The translations under genes and the position numbers were made by a program. The notes beneath the pieces are model-generated. The model had not been told where the DNA came from. It made no database searches and saw only the letters and a list, made by a program, of their open reading frames with translations. A DNA stretch of 64,000 nucleotides, taken from positions 1,305-65,304 of the forward strand of contig SKFZ01000010.1 of the NCBI GenBank assembly GCA_007117695.1, read 5' to 3'. Shown here in pieces: positions 40,330 through 61,463 of the stretch; position 1 is the stretch's first letter, and each line of letters opens with the position of its first letter. This DNA comes from Bacilli bacterium (lineage in GTDB: Bacteria > Bacillota_I > Bacilli_A > RF39 > UBA660).

Positions 40330-41511
40330 TTACTTATTTAATACTTTTATTCCAGGGAGATCTTTTCCTTCAAGCAATTCTAAAGATGCCCCTCCTCCAG
40401 TTGAAATATGTGTTATTTTGTCTTTAAACCCTAAGTTTATGGCTGCAGAAGCCGTGTCGCCACCACCAACAATTATTGTTTTGCCAGTATCTACAATCCC
40501 TTTAAAAACTTCTTTTGTTCCTTTTGAAAAACTATCATGCTCAAAAACGCCTAAAGGCCCATTCCAAACAACTGTTTTACTTTCAGATAAAACTTCTAAA
40601 AAATTAGCTATAGTTTCATCACCAATATCAACACCCATCATATCCTCGTTTATGGAATCTGAACTTGCGTAATAACCTAATTCATCATCGATTGATTTAG
40701 CTAAAATGTTATCTACAGGCAAAATTATTTTATCAGAATACTTAACTAACATCTCTTTGCAAAAATCAATATATTCTTCTTCTAAAAGGGAATTCCCTAC
40801 TTCATAACCTTTTGCTTTTAAAAAAGTATATGCCATTCCTCCGCCGATAATAATATTATCTACTTTATGAACTAAATTTTCTATAACACCAATTTTATCA
40901 GAAACTTTTGCACCACCTAAAATTAGTGAAAACGGCTTTTCTGGACTTTCTAAAACCTTTTTAAAATTAATCAACTCTTTTTCAATTAAAAAACCTACAC
41001 CTACATCACTTAAGTTATTAGCGATTCCAACATTGGAAGCGTGGGCTCTATGAGCAGTACCAAATGCATCGTTTATGAATATTTCTCCAAGAGATGCCCA
41101 GTACTTGCCAAGTGTTTGATCATTTTTACTTTCAGCTTTTTCATTTAAATCTTCAAATCTTGTGTTTTCAACTAATAAAACATCCCTATCTTTCATATTA
41201 GAAATGCTATCTTCAAGTTTAATCCCTCTTGTTTCACCAGGAAAAGCAACTTGCTTATTCAAATAAAAGCTTAACTTCTCTGCAACAATCCCCAATGACA
41301 ACTTTTCTTTATCTTCAGGAGTTTTAACGCGCCCCAAATGCGAAAATATAATAACTTTAGCCCCTTGATCTAGTGCATAATTTATTGTTTTTAAGCTTTC
41401 TTTTAACCTGTTATCGTCTTTAATTTCACCATCTTTAATAGGAACGTTAAAATCACACCTAATTAACACTTTTTTTCCTTTTAATTCAAAATCTTTTATA
41501 GTTTTAATCAT
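40330..41511 (-). CDS. pgk: Phosphoglycerate kinase
   Basis: 393 aa with motifs RCDFNVP and GGGDTA...GGGASLE. Confidence 0.95.
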   Translation of the reverse strand: MIKTIKDFELKGKKVLIRCDFNVPIKDGEIKDDNRLKESLKTINYALDQGAKVIIFSHLGRVKTPEDKEKLSLGIVAEKLSFYLNKQVAFPGETRGIKLEDSISNMKDRDVLLVENTRFEDLNEKAESKNDQTLGKYWASLGEIFINDAFGTAHRAHASNVGIANNLSDVGVGFLIEKELINFKKVLESPEKPFSLILGGAKVSDKIGVIENLVHKVDNIIIGGGMAYTFLKAKGYEVGNSLLEEEYIDFCKEMLVKYSDKIILPVDNILAKSIDDELGYYASSDSINEDMMGVDIGDETIANFLEVLSESKTVVWNGPLGVFEHDSFSKGTKEVFKGIVDTGKTIIVGGGDTASAAINLGFKDKITHISTGGGASLELLEGKDLPGIKVLNK

Positions 41512-42512
41512 AAATCCTCCTGAAAATCAAATCTTTTAACATCTACTTGATAATTTCTATTTATTTCCTCGCTTGATAAAGAACGATTATATACTCTTAT
41601 TGAATGAATTTCGCCTTCAAAATAATTCGACCCATCTCCTATTATGAAATGATTATCATCACCAATTTGAATATAATCGCTTACCTCTTCGCTATTATCA
41701 TTCAAATATATAATAGAGTTATTTAATGAACCATTATTTATGAGTGCTAGCCTATAGGGCTCACCCATACTATATGATGAACTATATCCATGTGTATTAG
41801 ATGATCCATAATGCCAAAGAGGGTCAGTAGAAGAAAATTCTAAGTATGCAAAATCTCTAATACCTACATAAGACGTTGATGTTCCACTTTGCCTCAAAAC
41901 CAACTCTATGGTAAAGTCTTCACCTAGTAAACTTGGTTTTATTTTTCTTGCAGAATTTAAAACATCATTGCTATTTTCAAATTTTAAACTATTCACAGTC
42001 CATCTATCTTTATCGATTAATATTATATCATTATTAGAGCTGGTTAAATCTTGCATATAATTATTAAACCTAAAACCTTTTCCATTATTGTTTATGGCAT
42101 CATAATGAAGCACAAGCCCTTCTTGTTCATACATGTCAATTCCTGCTTTAAATCTTTCAAATGAATAATCTATCATTCCACTTGAAAGCCTTTCTGCTAC
42201 TATAGTAAAATTATTATTAACCGTGTCATCAGTTTCAGGATCAATCACCGTTTGCCTAATAAGACCTTTTTCTTCTAAAAACTTTATCGATATAAATGCT
42301 TTTCCTGATTCAACATTTAACTGTTCAAAATAATTTCTGTTTGACTCAATATATGATTCTGTTGCCATATACAAATTTTGCAAGTAGGTATCAAAGTCAT
42401 TTTGATTTGTTCTTCTGAATGTATTTATTATTGTTGGTACAGAAATTATAAGCACAATTGCAAGCACAACTATAACACCTAATAATTCAACTAATGTAAA
42501 ACCCTTTTTCAT
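41508..42512 (-). CDS. Prepilin-type (class III signal peptide) modular pilin-like protein with a C-terminal LamG/ConA-like lectin module
   Basis: The N-terminus MKKG|FTLVELLGVIVVLAIV carries a canonical prepilin peptidase site (G-1, F+1, E+5) and a hydrophobic helix. The C-terminal 200 aa ends with the Laminin_G_3-type motif GEIHSIRVYNRSLSSEEI. The stop overlaps the pgk ATG (ATGA). Confidence 0.6.
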   Translation of the reverse strand: MKKGFTLVELLGVIVVLAIVLIISVPTIINTFRRTNQNDFDTYLQNLYMATESYIESNRNYFEQLNVESGKAFISIKFLEEKGLIRQTVIDPETDDTVNNNFTIVAERLSSGMIDYSFERFKAGIDMYEQEGLVLHYDAINNNGKGFRFNNYMQDLTSSNNDIILIDKDRWTVNSLKFENSNDVLNSARKIKPSLLGEDFTIELVLRQSGTSTSYVGIRDFAYLEFSSTDPLWHYGSSNTHGYSSSYSMGEPYRLALINNGSLNNSIIYLNDNSEEVSDYIQIGDDNHFIIGDGSNYFEGEIHSIRVYNRSLSSEEINRNYQVDVKRFDFQEDL

Positions 42513-55200: not shown

Positions 55201-57512
<2,312 letters not shown>

Positions 57513-57527
57513 CTACTTATATTATAA

Positions 57528-57556
57528 CAAAAAAACAGTATAAAAATACTGTTTTA
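57528..57556 (-). terminator. Rho-independent terminator downstream of the pilin-FGE-like gene. The ligA promoter TGtTATAAT follows.
   Basis: Stem acagtat/atactgt with loop aaaa, flanked by A and T runs. The minus-strand TTGTTATAAT plus AGGTGA precede the ligA ATG. Confidence 0.65.
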
Positions 57557-57559
57557 ATT

Positions 57560-59161
57560 TTATTTGTTATGAATAGCAATACGAAAGCCTCTTGATGAAC
57601 TAGCACCACCATTGACAGCAGTAAAGGAAAATATACTAGCCCCAGGGTCCAAACTGTTAAGTCCACCCCTAACATACCAAGAATTATCATGGTCTCCTCT
57701 AGCAGCTACCATTAAAGCATCTTCCCAATTAAAAGTTTCCCCAAGAGCATCACCTAATTTACTATGTGAGAAGTCTTCTATGTCATCATTAAAATCATAC
57801 TTATCTATAAGAGGTTCTAAAGAAGGATTGTTTATATTTGGAGATAGTTCGCTAGCGGATTCTTCATCAGATGTAAAACCAGATTGCGATATTCTAAGTG
57901 ACTCATTTCCCGATGTTTTGACTCCAGCCATTACATATTCATAAGCCCCACCAGCCATATCATAAACACCATACACATTCCCTGTGGTACTTGTTTTTTG
58001 TCCATTTTCACTATTGTATTGGTTGCAATCAGAATTAGCTGGCCCAAGTGCCGAATCAGAAGCGCATCCAGTTAAAAACGAGTTATTTCTATTCGACCAT
58101 ATTTGTTCGTCACTACCGTATACAGACCTTGATAAATACACTACTGCTCCCCAGTCTATATTTCTTAAAAGCCTTGACTCAGCCTCATCTCCATTCAATC
58201 CATATATATTACCATGTTCATTAAAATCTCTTGCAACAACGAAGGCTTTAGATAACTCAATTCCTCTCCACATAATACTATTTGGTTTTATTATTGCGCT
58301 ATCAAGTTCAGGCGAACTAACAACACCTTCAGCAGCAGTAGTAGCACCTTCAAATCCGGTTGTATATTTTCCAACCCATAACCCATTTAATTCATCTTCA
58401 CCAAAGCTAAATGCTGGATGAGTTAACCATTCATTTTCTAAATTTCCAAGTGATTTTTCGGTTGATATTCCTTCAAAAATCACATCAAACATTACATCTT
58501 CATATGCCATTGCTGAAAAACTTGAGTTTAAAATTCTATACCTATATCTTGGTATCCAAACAAAGTATGCTAATACATCTTCGTCATCAACTTCCTCACC
58601 AGGTGAAATGTTTTGATAATAACCCCTGCTAGTAGCTGTTAACAAAGCAGCATTGGCCCACATTTTATCACTGTAGTCATACCAACGCGAATTAAGGTCC
58701 GCTTTTACCCATGTATCTTGTTCTTCATCATACATTATTGGTAGCATACCCTCGACTAGTTCAGGTCTTGAAGCACCTGATGGATCTATATATCCACACT
58801 TGCCTTGGTTTAATAGTTCATACTCAATATTATCGATTTCATTTATTTTTATTTTAACTTCTTTTAACTCTGATATTTCTTCATTTGTGTTTGGATCTAA
58901 AAGTGGACTTGGTAATATCCCTGAATTAAAAAGTTGACGAAGAGTTATACAATACTCCCTGTCTTCAATCAACGGATATTGATCTCTGTTATCGTCCATA
59001 TATCTCCTTGTAGAAGCGTAAATAAGCTTTAAAGTATCATCACCGACACTTGTTCTTATAGTTCTAATTTGATTAATAATAGGCGGAACTACTATGAGTG
59101 AAATAATTCCTAAAATAACAATAACTCCTAGTAACTCGACTAGTGTAAACCCTTTTTTCAT
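57560..59161 (-). CDS. Prepilin-type (class III signal peptide) modular pilin-like protein with a C-terminal FGE-sulfatase/C-type-lectin-like module
   Basis: The N-terminus MKKG|FTLVELLGVIVILGIISLIVV is a canonical prepilin leader. The first 15 aa are identical to the gap-pgk pilin-like protein. The C-terminal third shows FGE-sulfatase (SUMF1-like) signature blocks: GNVYGVYDMAGGAYEYV (compare GNVWEW), RGGLNSL and a terminal RGFRIA. This assignment is tentative. Confidence 0.55.
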   Translation of the reverse strand: MKKGFTLVELLGVIVILGIISLIVVPPIINQIRTIRTSVGDDTLKLIYASTRRYMDDNRDQYPLIEDREYCITLRQLFNSGILPSPLLDPNTNEEISELKEVKIKINEIDNIEYELLNQGKCGYIDPSGASRPELVEGMLPIMYDEEQDTWVKADLNSRWYDYSDKMWANAALLTATSRGYYQNISPGEEVDDEDVLAYFVWIPRYRYRILNSSFSAMAYEDVMFDVIFEGISTEKSLGNLENEWLTHPAFSFGEDELNGLWVGKYTTGFEGATTAAEGVVSSPELDSAIIKPNSIMWRGIELSKAFVVARDFNEHGNIYGLNGDEAESRLLRNIDWGAVVYLSRSVYGSDEQIWSNRNNSFLTGCASDSALGPANSDCNQYNSENGQKTSTTGNVYGVYDMAGGAYEYVMAGVKTSGNESLRISQSGFTSDEESASELSPNINNPSLEPLIDKYDFNDDIEDFSHSKLGDALGETFNWEDALMVAARGDHDNSWYVRGGLNSLDPGASIFSFTAVNGGASSSRGFRIAIHNK

Positions 59162-59225
59162 ATGTGATCCTCCTACTATAAATATACCACATTCATAAAA
59201 ATTAAAAAAGCACTTGCGTGCTTTA
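59162..59225 (-). promoter_or_regulatory. Terminator for the pcrA transcript, followed by an extended -10 promoter and AGGAGG ribosome-binding site for the pilin-FGE-like gene
   Basis: Minus strand reads aaAGCACgcaaGTGCTtttttaat ... TGGTATATT ... AGGAGG atcacat ATG. Confidence 0.5.
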
Positions 59226-59226
59226 A

Positions 59227-59379
59227 TTATCTTCTACTTAGTTCACTATACACAAACTTTGAAATTAAAATGGCCCCGAAAAACACTATAACCCAAAAAC
59301 CAATATTATTGTGGTTATCTACAATGAACTCCTTTACGGGCTCCATAGCCCCTTCAAACCAATCAAAAAATCTTCTCAT
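59227..59379 (-). CDS. Small hypothetical membrane protein (50 aa), translationally coupled to pcrA
   Basis: Encodes MRRFFDWFEGAMEPVKEFIVDNHNNIGFWVIVFFGAILISKFVYSELSRR. The GGAAGGAG ribosome-binding site lies inside the pcrA 3' end, and the ATG is 2 nt after the pcrA stop. One predicted transmembrane helix. It falls below the ORF-track length cut-off. Confidence 0.35.
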   Translation of the reverse strand: MRRFFDWFEGAMEPVKEFIVDNHNNIGFWVIVFFGAILISKFVYSELSRR

Positions 59380-59381
59380 AA

Positions 59382-61463
59382 TTACTCCTTCCTAATACTT
59401 TTATGGCCTTTCATAATGCTCTTGACACCATATGGGTGTGGAAAGGCAATACTTAAAATACTTTTATTTATAGCAACAACAATTCCTTCACCAAAAGTTA
59501 TGTGTGTTACATTATCACCAATTTTATATTCAATGCTAGAATCAATATTTCTTGCATTACTTATAGAAACATCGTTTTCAGAATTCAAACTTTCTAAAAA
59601 TTCATCACCAATTTCTTCTATGAAACGACTTTGTGGGCTGTACGTGTCCATCCCAAAAATACGTCTTCTCTTAGCATTTAATAAAAACAACTCTTTTTTA
59701 GCTCTAGTTATAGCAACATAACATAATCTTCTTTCTTCTTCTAACTGCTCATTATCCATCAAAGAATTTTTATGTGGAAAAATTGTTTCCTCAAGCCCTA
59801 TTACAAACACGTAATCAAACTCTAACCCTTTAGCAGAATGAACAGTCATTAAAGTTACTACATCTCTTTTATCTTTATATTCTTCGATGTCCGCAACTAA
59901 ACTAATCTCTTCTAAAAACTCATCTAACATTATTGTACCATATCTTTCTTCAAAAGACTTAGTAATAGATTTAAACTCCTCTAAATTTTCAATCCTTATT
60001 TCAGCATCTAATGTTTTTTCGTTTTTTAATTCTTGTCTCATACCACTTTTGTCTAAAACCTCTTCTACTAATTCGGTAATTGAAAGTTTAGGTTTTTTTG
60101 CAATTATATCGTTAATTATTTTTTTGAATTCAAGCTCTTTTCCGCTTTCAATTGAATCAAACAAACTAGAATTTAAATCATTAGCACGGCTTTGGATTTT
60201 TTGAATTGTTTTTAACCCAATTTTTCTTTTTGGAACGTTTATTATCCTTTGTAAACTAATATCATCATTACTATTGTGAATAAGCTTCAAATAGGCAATT
60301 AGATCTTTTATTTCTTTCCTTTGATAAAAGTAAAATCCTCCGACAACTTTATATGGAATATTTTCCGCTAGCAAAACTTCCTCAATGTTTCTAGATTGAG
60401 CGTTTGTTCTATATAAAATAGCAATATTATTTCTAGTTACACCATCCTCTAACAAACTTTTAATCTTCGCTTTAACAAAAAAAGCCTCATCTTTTTCATC
60501 TACTAGCCTTTTATATTTTATTTTTACCCCTTCATCCTGTCTTGTCCAAAGCTTTTTGTCTTTTCTTTGCTTATTATTTTTAATAACCGCATTAGCAGCT
60601 TCTAAAATGTTTTTAGTAGATCTATAATTTTCTTCAAGCATAATAACTTCTGAATTAGCATAATCTTTTTCAAAATTTAAAATATTGCGATAATTTGATC
60701 CTCTAAATGAATAAATTGACTGGTTCTCATCACCCACTACACAAATATTTTTATATTTAGCGCTAATCATCTTAGTTAAAATATATTGAGCCTCGTTTGT
60801 ATCCTGATATTCATCTATTAATACATAATTAAATCTTTCTTGGTAGTTTTTCAAAACTTCTTTATTCTCATTAAATAGTTTTATAGGCATAATTAGCAAA
60901 TCATCAAAATCAAAAGAATTATTTACTTTTAATTTTTTTTGATAAGACTTATACACTTTGTAAACTAACTCTTCATATTCATTTGTTACAAACTTTTCAT
61001 ATTCCTCAGGCGTTATTAATTCATTTTTTGCACTACTTATTTTTGATTTAATACCTCTTGGATTATATTGTTTTGGGTCAAGATTCATTTCTTTAATAAT
61101 TTTTTTCACAACACTTAATGAATCATCACTATCAAAAATTGTAAAGTTCTTTTTATATTCCAACTTTTCATAATTTTCTTTAATAATGCTAAGCCCAAAA
61201 GAATGGAAGGTTGATATTTGCATCTCATAAGCACTTGGGCCTATCAAATTTATAATTCGCTCTTTCATCTCTTTCGCTGCTTTATTAGTAAAAGTTATCG
61301 CCAATATATTATATGGATCGATACCTAATTCTTTTATCATATATGCTATTCTAGTAGTTAGAACTCTAGTTTTACCACTTCCTGCACCAGCAAGTACCAA
61401 AAGTGGTCCTTCAGTTTTAGTAACTGCTTTTTTTTGTACTTCGTTTAATCCTTCTAAATTCAT
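59382..61463 (-). CDS. pcrA: ATP-dependent DNA helicase PcrA (UvrD family)
   Basis: Walker A AGAGSGKT and UvrD motifs (DEYQDTN, VGDENQSIY, TVHSAKGLE). 693 aa. Confidence 0.9.
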   Translation of the reverse strand: MNLEGLNEVQKKAVTKTEGPLLVLAGAGSGKTRVLTTRIAYMIKELGIDPYNILAITFTNKAAKEMKERIINLIGPSAYEMQISTFHSFGLSIIKENYEKLEYKKNFTIFDSDDSLSVVKKIIKEMNLDPKQYNPRGIKSKISSAKNELITPEEYEKFVTNEYEELVYKVYKSYQKKLKVNNSFDFDDLLIMPIKLFNENKEVLKNYQERFNYVLIDEYQDTNEAQYILTKMISAKYKNICVVGDENQSIYSFRGSNYRNILNFEKDYANSEVIMLEENYRSTKNILEAANAVIKNNKQRKDKKLWTRQDEGVKIKYKRLVDEKDEAFFVKAKIKSLLEDGVTRNNIAILYRTNAQSRNIEEVLLAENIPYKVVGGFYFYQRKEIKDLIAYLKLIHNSNDDISLQRIINVPKRKIGLKTIQKIQSRANDLNSSLFDSIESGKELEFKKIINDIIAKKPKLSITELVEEVLDKSGMRQELKNEKTLDAEIRIENLEEFKSITKSFEERYGTIMLDEFLEEISLVADIEEYKDKRDVVTLMTVHSAKGLEFDYVFVIGLEETIFPHKNSLMDNEQLEEERRLCYVAITRAKKELFLLNAKRRRIFGMDTYSPQSRFIEEIGDEFLESLNSENDVSISNARNIDSSIEYKIGDNVTHITFGEGIVVAINKSILSIAFPHPYGVKSIMKGHKSIRKE

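Follow-up and report, generated by a model that had tools for sequence, protein, structure and literature searches.

The stretch of DNA analysed here, referred to as the window, comprises 64,000 nucleotides (64 kb) of contig SKFZ01000010.1 (positions 1,305 to 65,304, forward strand; assembly GCA_007117695.1), from a Bacilli bacterium of the RF39 lineage. In the window, the gap between pcrA (59382-61463) and ligA (55533-57512) holds a prepilin-type gene. Its coding sequence, at 57560..59161 on the minus strand, is complete and encodes a modular prepilin-type protein of 533 amino acids (aa) that starts with MKKGFTLVELLGVIVILGIISLIVVPP. We hold, with somewhat better than even confidence, that this product belongs at the cell surface as a modular, type IV pilin-like protein, and that it carries a lectin-fold binding module resembling TaqVP, the variable protein of a diversity-generating retroelement (DGR). 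The following parts can be told apart in the protein:

59150..59161, minus strand: class III signal peptide leader MKKG, with a predicted cut behind Gly4 that leaves F+1 and E+5
58796..59149, minus strand: pilin module, residues 5-~122, an alpha1 helix and a small alpha/beta head (AlphaFold (AF2) model, profile matches)
57563..58789, minus strand: TaqVP-like module with a C-type-lectin (CLec) fold, formylglycine-generating enzyme (FGE) subtype, residues ~125-533 (~410 residues)
57563..57712, minus strand: segment homologous to DGR variable regions (VRs), residues ~484-533 (WYVRGG...FRIAIHNK), a putative ligand-binding surface (VR alignment)

The leader, in which MKKG is followed by FTLVELLGVIVILGIISLIVVPP across the predicted cleavage site, is a class III signal peptide, as the first-pass annotation of this DNA had proposed. 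Both the N_methyl model (PF07963; 23.6 bits, E=3.5e-5, Pfam cut-off 21.2) and TIGR02532 (NCBIfam; 23.3 bits, cut-off 16.3) match above their cut-offs. In an alignment of 41 homologs, the conservation of G-1, F+1 and E+5 (G4, F5 and E9) reaches 90% or more, and the class III signal peptide motif is kept in 38 of the 41 proteins. Judging from the sequence, the leader would be cut after Gly4. The AF2 model, made from the same alignment (mean pLDDT 90.5, pTM 0.87), places helices at residues 7-37 and 41-57 and strands at 69-117, that is, an alpha1 helix and then an alpha/beta head. G14 and P22 lie in the alpha1 helix, and a match of the family profile to solved pilins extends over residues 3-93, with E-values down to 3e-9. 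Two cysteine pairs are kept in most of the aligned homologs, C71/C122 (YCI...C) at the end of the pilin head and C366/C379 (TGC...C-x-x-Y) in the lectin module. Both could form disulfides, and C71/C122 could be analogous to the pilin D-region.

With a pilin module in residues 1-122 and a CLec-fold module in residues 125-533, the protein is a modular pilin. The first-pass annotation had considered the fusion of a pilin leader to an FGE-type fold an undescribed architecture. However, the class of modular pilins is well established, with 264 architectures on record, and Dataset S1 of Raynaud et al. 2021 already lists the combination IPR012902-IPR005532, a pilin motif with a SUMF/FGE domain, in 8 proteins (PMC8179133).

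The model predicts that the C-terminal module has the FGE-subtype CLec fold. A Foldseek search against the PDB returned TaqVP as the sole significant match (E=9e-9), over ~420 columns that cover the entire module, and fold comparisons of the module gave figures of 12.8 for PvdO, 12.4 for TvpA, 11.9 for CarF, 11.3 for PorK, 11.2 for CalU17, 11.1 for SUMF2, 10.8 for EgtB and 10.7 for Mtd. The blocks strongly conserved among the 41 homologs are WANA, WIPRYRYKLFN, WLTHPAFTFG, EWGAVAYL, STTGNIYGVYDMSGG, LGDATGET, W..RGG and a terminal FR. The blocks GNVYGVYDMAGGAYEYV, RGGLNSL and RGFRIA, in which the first-pass annotation had recognised FGE-sulfatase signatures, are all found in the 533-aa protein. 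The lectin-like fold that it had proposed is borne out by the structure prediction and by the TaqVP match, but the closest relatives are DGR variable proteins and not FGE enzymes.

A secreted or surface enzyme of the FGE family (formylglycine-generating, sulfoxide-synthase-like or a PvdO-like oxidase), tethered by the pilin leader, would be in keeping with the weak match to the FGE-sulfatase hidden Markov model (HMM; PF03781). This match reaches 13.9 bits against a cut-off of 23.3 (E=0.042), over residues 363-412 only, and 6 of the 41 homologs have E<0.01 (best E 0.0015), all below the Pfam gathering score. Catalysis by human FGE (hFGE) requires C336 and C341 in the equivalent segment (PMC6328139). 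The window protein sequence has no Cys past residue 379, and none among its last 150 residues, the part that holds the catalytic pair in FGE; nor does it have a DinB or iron-binding partner domain, as EgtB does. We consider such an enzyme extremely improbable, and it was rejected as a candidate on the sub-threshold HMM score and the missing cysteines. Because the FGE catalytic cysteines are absent, we read the module as a binding module rather than an enzyme, namely a binding-type member of the fold that is nearest to the DGR variable proteins.

Among the closest homologs, the VR-equivalent segment is the most diverged part of the protein, with 34% identity compared with 54% in the module core and 79% in alpha1N. 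From the sequences, this high divergence is consistent with a ligand-contacting surface. The C-terminus of the window protein aligns with the VR scaffold W-x-x-RGG ... AG-x-F ... G ... (S/F)R and with the proven VRs of six related loci (L013, L016, L026, L031, L051 and L083).

Since the best structural match was a DGR variable protein, 84 related loci (988 kb) were scanned for DGR parts, and also for pilus machinery. In seven of them (L013, L016, L026, L031, L051, L077 and L083), genes for bAvd and for a reverse transcriptase of the DGR type (RT; IGNYTSQ...YMDD) are found 1-1.5 kb downstream of the family member. The complete DGR cassettes in these loci, consisting of template repeat (TR), bAvd and RT, lie about 1-4 kb downstream of it. 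Each of the seven has a VR/TR pair of 116-155 nt in which nearly all mismatches are at adenines of the template, and in all of them the VR forms the last 38-50 codons of the homolog. A prepilin N-terminus is found in six of the seven DGR targets; the target in L077 is a protein of >1500 aa without a pilin leader. The seven proven VRs have a G+C content of 0.51-0.64 within genes of 0.31-0.38, a jump of +0.19 to +0.28.

The same G+C jump is found in ~30 further family members with no RT within the fetched flank (examples are L052, L032 (two genes), L033, L066, L045, L049, L010, L059, L062, L067 and L021). In these, the last 130 nt have 0.5-0.68 G+C in genes of ~0.3-0.36, and a conserved hairpin follows the stop. 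Pairs of genes within one metagenome-assembled genome (MAG), namely L059/L067, L032/L034 and L066/L045, share the scaffold bases and the post-stop hairpin, and differ at codon positions 1-2. By their sequences, the ~30 G+C-rich ends are probably VRs of DGRs that act in trans or on several targets, or relics of such VRs. Presence and absence of the DGR element can be seen by comparing L016, with the order pcrA-asnS-pilin-TR-avd-RT, and L021, which has the same synteny without the cassette.

These relatives make it conceivable that the window gene itself encodes an active DGR variable protein, which an RT and a TR elsewhere in the genome would diversify in trans. Its module has a DGR variable protein as the closest solved structure, cis targeting is proven for seven homologs, the pcrA-linked homolog of L016 among them, and the ~30 VR-like G+C-rich ends, with their within-MAG pairs, suggest multi-target DGRs. 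However, an adenine-tolerant scan of both strands found no TR in the 64-kb window (only the self-match), and neither an RT motif scan nor tblastn with the relatives' RT and Avd proteins found a DGR RT or Avd there; a local DGR acting on the window gene was rejected on these three negative searches. The window gene also lacks the G+C jump of all seven proven targets, its last 130 nt having 0.41 G+C against 0.37 upstream (+0.04), and the homologs in L001 and L002 rise by just +0.01 and +0.03. Its 3' end has no G+C-rich sequence of the VR type or of an initiation-of-mutagenic-homing (IMH) type, and the post-stop hairpin is AT-rich and terminator-like. A protein from another data set, P0121, is identical to the window protein at 532 of 533 residues, including the whole VR-equivalent, although it may come from the same sample and would then be uninformative on DGR activity. 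Diversification in trans thus seems very unlikely, and the window copy appears, from its sequence, to be a fixed-specificity, non-diversified member of a family that has DGR-targeted members.

This family is very large and little studied, and belongs to uncultured gut Bacilli. A word-indexed search returned >4000 clusters at 90% identity, many of them full-length proteins of 500-550 aa from Bacilli, Mollicutes or Tenericutes MAGs that are annotated only as 'prepilin-type N-terminal cleavage/methylation domain-containing protein'. An exhaustive search of 50% representatives gave 6403 matches at E<=1e-3 and 982 at E<=1e-30. At least 586 loci in species-representative genomes, almost all uncultured gut Bacilli-type MAGs, have a relative, and several paralogs occur per genome, often in tandem. 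The ~400-residue TaqVP-like module is also found in 5-6 tandem copies in the giant proteins P0122 (3713 aa), P0123 (4516 aa) and P0125 (4340 aa), and behind non-pilin N-termini in many other proteins. A phage origin of the module was rejected, as tblastn against 50,697 phage records gave no match; PHROGs matched the pilin leader only, and BFVD returned fold-level matches only, to FGE-like and tail-fibre proteins. It is tentatively proposed, as a possibility we rate somewhat below even, that, in uncultured gut Bacilli (RF39/RFN20-like MAGs), DGRs have type IV pilin-borne TaqVP-like lectin-fold proteins as a principal target, the window gene being a fixed-specificity member.

The position of the gene between pcrA and ligA, which the first-pass annotation had described correctly together with its ribosome-binding site (RBS) and flanking hairpins, had been taken there as a sign of acquisition by insertion into a core operon. 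Five homologous loci (L001, L002, L085, L086 and L087; proteins P0004, P0009, P0010, P0013 and P0015), of 42-47% identity, were inspected, and in all five a pilin homolog lies between pcrA and ligA. The wider synteny, tsaE-tsaB-rimI-tsaD-pcrA ... ligA ... metallophosphatase-Rce1-like-rimP-nusA, is common to them. In L001 and L002, identity to the window is 68-69% for pcrA, 53-55% for ligA and 44-46% for the pilin protein, a pattern that fits vertical descent with a faster-evolving pilin gene. The content of the gap varies, in that a small open reading frame (ORF), an NTP-transferase gene and a heliorhodopsin gene come and go; the arrangement in L086 is exactly that of the window. The heliorhodopsin gene lies between the pilin gene and ligA in four of the loci, and is found neither in the window nor in L086:

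L001, 9605-10378: heliorhodopsin gene (PF18761, E=1.7e-93)
L002, 9634-10407: heliorhodopsin gene
L085, 6632-7405: heliorhodopsin gene
L087, 6623-7396: heliorhodopsin gene

A foreign cassette recently placed in the pcrA-ligA operon could account for the changing gap content among relatives, for the RBS and hairpins that the pilin gene has of its own, and for its higher G+C content. The last of these, which the first-pass annotation had noticed by eye, is real (0.358 compared with 0.300 in the window), but the excess is confined to codon positions 1-2. The G+C content at the second codon position (GC2), 0.40, is the highest of the 46 window genes, whereas that at the third position (GC3), 0.22, is inside the window range of 0.12-0.27, and in synonymous codon-usage divergence the gene is 22nd of 46. 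As the excess lies in codon position 2, it reflects amino-acid composition. Neither repeats nor integrase or tRNA genes were found at the borders of the pilin gene, and the same slot is used in the five relatives, whose pilins are 42-47% identical, compared with ~68% for pcrA and ~54% for ligA in L001 and L002. A recent horizontal insertion was thus rejected on the shared slot and on the native codon usage and GC3, the kind of pattern by which the first-pass annotation itself would have given up the insertion, and we give it hardly any credence. To judge from this sequence evidence, the pilin gene has long resided between pcrA and ligA in its clade; it may have been inserted there in the distant past, at the clade's base, which would agree with the modular-pilin reading.

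Around the gene, the following signals and neighbouring features were found:

59227..59379, minus strand: 50-aa ORF, predicted single-pass membrane protein, MRRFFDWFEGAMEPVKEFIVDNHNNIGFWVIVFFGAILISKFVYSELSRR, in the pcrA-ligA gap and separate from the pilin gene
59207..59224, minus strand: terminator-like hairpin and U tract, 3' of the small ORF coupled to pcrA (dG -8.3 kcal/mol, z -3.3)
59181..59189, minus strand: extended -10-like TGgTATATT, a putative promoter of the pilin gene's own (from the sequence)
59169..59174, minus strand: RBS AGGAGG, 7 nt 5' of the pilin-gene ATG (from the sequence)
57532..57555, minus strand: terminator-like hairpin and U tract, directly after the pilin-gene stop (dG -9.0 kcal/mol, z -2.5)
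57521..57529, minus strand: extended -10-like TGTTATAAT ahead of ligA, putative, following the U tract of the downstream hairpin (from the sequence)

The pilin gene probably has an RBS and a promoter of its own, with weak terminators on both sides. Both of the -10-like motifs that the first-pass annotation had read as promoters are present; promoter-like hexamers in this 30% G+C DNA are not enriched over shuffled sequence (39 compared with 33+/-5), and for this reason both motifs are only putative promoters. The upstream hairpin (59207-59224), seen earlier as a terminator of pcrA, would terminate pcrA and the 50-aa ORF, which lies between pcrA and the hairpin and had been missed. This ORF is translationally coupled to the pcrA stop, with its RBS, GGAAGGAG, within the 3' end of pcrA, and is kept as an ORF of 47-51 aa right after pcrA in L085, L086 and L087, with P14, N25, F28 and W29 invariant; it matches no Pfam family. 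For ligA, the mechanical ORF start is GTG 57512 (minus strand), and ATG 57503 (MSKKRIKE...), after a well-spaced AGGTGA, is the likelier start.

The window holds a second modular prepilin-type gene, at 41508-42512 on the minus strand (334 aa), with an almost identical leader, MKKGFTLVELLGVIVVLAIV. It combines N_methyl with a Laminin_G_3 / concanavalin A (ConA)-like lectin domain, and lies between gap and pgk, its stop overlapping the pgk start. More distant family members lie just 3' of pcrA in L016, L021 and L024, and in L057 a family member is found between gap and pgk, where three prepilin-type genes share the gap. Given these cases and the window gene at 41508-42512, it is a habit of the lineage that prepilin-type genes are parked inside housekeeping operons (pcrA-ligA, gap-pgk).

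How would such a protein act? Our reading of the window gene as a modular type IV pilin-like protein would imply that a prepilin peptidase cuts after Gly4 and N-methylates the Phe, and that the hydrophobic alpha1 helix anchors the protein in the membrane. Type IV filament machinery would then take it up. With its 45-kDa module, too bulky for the body of a filament, it would most probably serve as a rare subunit or as one at the tip. The lectin fold would be displayed outside the cell, and the C-terminal ~50 residues, the same segment that DGRs hypermutate in homologs, would form the ligand-binding surface for adhesion to some glycan or protein. Incorporation of modular pilins into pili is known for PilB and PilC of Streptococcus sanguinis (PMC8179133).

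In L010, L041 and L073, a T2SSF platform protein and an A24 prepilin peptidase adjoin the family members, with no T2SSE ATPase adjacent:

L041, 1192-3919: T2SSF and A24 peptidase pair
L010, 8111-10644: T2SSF and A24 peptidase pair
L073, 10704-13198: T2SSF and A24 peptidase pair

The T2SSF protein of these loci is unusually long (570-650 aa), and a divergently oriented YqfQ-like gene precedes the T2SSF/A24 pair. Processing of the leader in this lineage is plausible, and assembly into a filament is inferred.

Several points weigh against the modular-pilin reading as a whole, the possible common sample of P0121 among them. The 64-kb window encodes neither a prepilin peptidase nor an assembly ATPase, a platform protein or a small major pilin, and the T2SSE-type Walker A motif (GxTGSGK[ST]T) occurs neither in the window nor in the 84 related loci. 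Furthermore, the FGE-sulfatase HMM remains below its threshold and the fold assignment comes from a predicted structure, and the promoter and terminator roles are inferred from motifs that are common in DNA of 30% G+C.

The machinery results also bear on another form of display, in which the class III signal peptide serves for export and anchoring only, as in the pseudopilins of type II secretion systems (T2SS) or the archaeal bindosome, and the module stands on a short stalk at the surface or is tethered by alpha1, never polymerised into a long filament. This is favoured by the many large prepilin-type paralogs per genome in the lineage, often in tandem and two in the 64-kb window alone, and by the scattering of prepilin-type genes in housekeeping operons and not in pilus operons. 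Likewise, no assembly ATPase motif was found near any of the 84 loci, where only the T2SSF platform and the A24 peptidase were seen, and sortases are reported to be lost in the related orders RFN20 and ML615J-28 (PMC10868615), which would favour another display route. However, the alpha1 helix has the canonical pilin residues G14, P22 and E5, needed for filament packing, the T2SSF platform conserved beside the peptidase implies a filament machine, and PilB and PilC of S. sanguinis are built into pili. Display at the membrane without a pilus is therefore unlikely in our view, though a serious contender, and a pilin-like subunit remains the reading that we prefer.

Taken alone, the window gene is a modest case, a vertically inherited modular pilin whose module comes from the DGR variable-protein branch of the CLec fold. 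The family joins two well-studied ideas, modular type IV pilins and DGR hypervariation of lectin-fold binding sites, in an abundant and uncultured clade of gut Bacilli. In the searchable literature, we found the link between pilins and DGRs touched on only in passing, with a VR in a GspG-type pilin domain (PMC11661182), and searches on DGRs with prepilins or type IV pilins, and on pili in RF39/Tenericutes genomics, found nothing specific. If the family is indeed a principal DGR target, these wall-reduced and partly sortase-poor bacteria would display both hypervariable and fixed adhesins mainly through prepilin-type anchoring, from genes placed within housekeeping operons that are strongly expressed (pcrA-ligA, gap-pgk). 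The Bacilli would then have, in DGR-diversified type IV pilins, a counterpart to the recently described DGR-diversified type V pilus tips in Bacteroides. The loci with and without DGRs provide a concrete set for studying how surface adhesins gain, and then fix, their specificities. The case also calls for caution, since additional G+C or an interrupted operon is no proof of horizontal transfer unless GC3 and synteny have been checked.

Of the known systems, PilB and PilC of S. sanguinis, with a von Willebrand factor A (vWA) and a ConA-like lectin module, respectively (PMC8179133; Shahin et al. 2023, PMC9934059), share with the window protein a class III signal peptide, a small pilin module and a bulky C-terminal binding module, as well as a monoderm Firmicute host and a presumed role in adhesion. 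Unlike these, the window protein has a ~410-residue TaqVP-like module of the FGE-subtype CLec fold in place of vWA or ConA, and its gene lies in a housekeeping operon and not in a pil locus. Compared with the FGE family PF03781 (SUMF1/2, PvdO, the EgtB C-domain, PorK/GldK), the module has a sub-gathering HMM score, no catalytic cysteines and a large N-terminal elaboration (residues 125-245).

TaqVP, a DGR variable protein from a Thermus aquaticus prophage (PDB 5VF4; Handa et al. 2019), has the FGE-subtype CLec fold, with its last 40 residues forming the variable ligand-binding surface, and lacks the Ser333/Cys336/Cys341 triad of hFGE (PMC6328139). Its sequence identity to the window protein is only 14-19%, a pilin leader is missing from TaqVP, and its gene lies in a prophage beside a DGR, whereas the window gene has no TR, RT or IMH in the window and sits in a chromosomal core operon. 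Two other DGR variable proteins, TvpA of Treponema denticola (2Y3C), a lipoprotein, and Mtd of Bordetella phage BPP-1 (1YU0), a trimeric tail-fibre tip, are likewise not pilin-borne. The DGR-diversified tip adhesins of Bacteroides belong to type V pili in Bacteroidota, in contrast to the prepilin/type IV proteins of Bacilli, of which the window copy is not diversified. What they have in common with the homologs of the window gene is a pilus subunit that carries a DGR-hypermutable CLec-type domain (Macadangdang et al. 2024, bioRxiv 10.1101/2024.11.15.621889).

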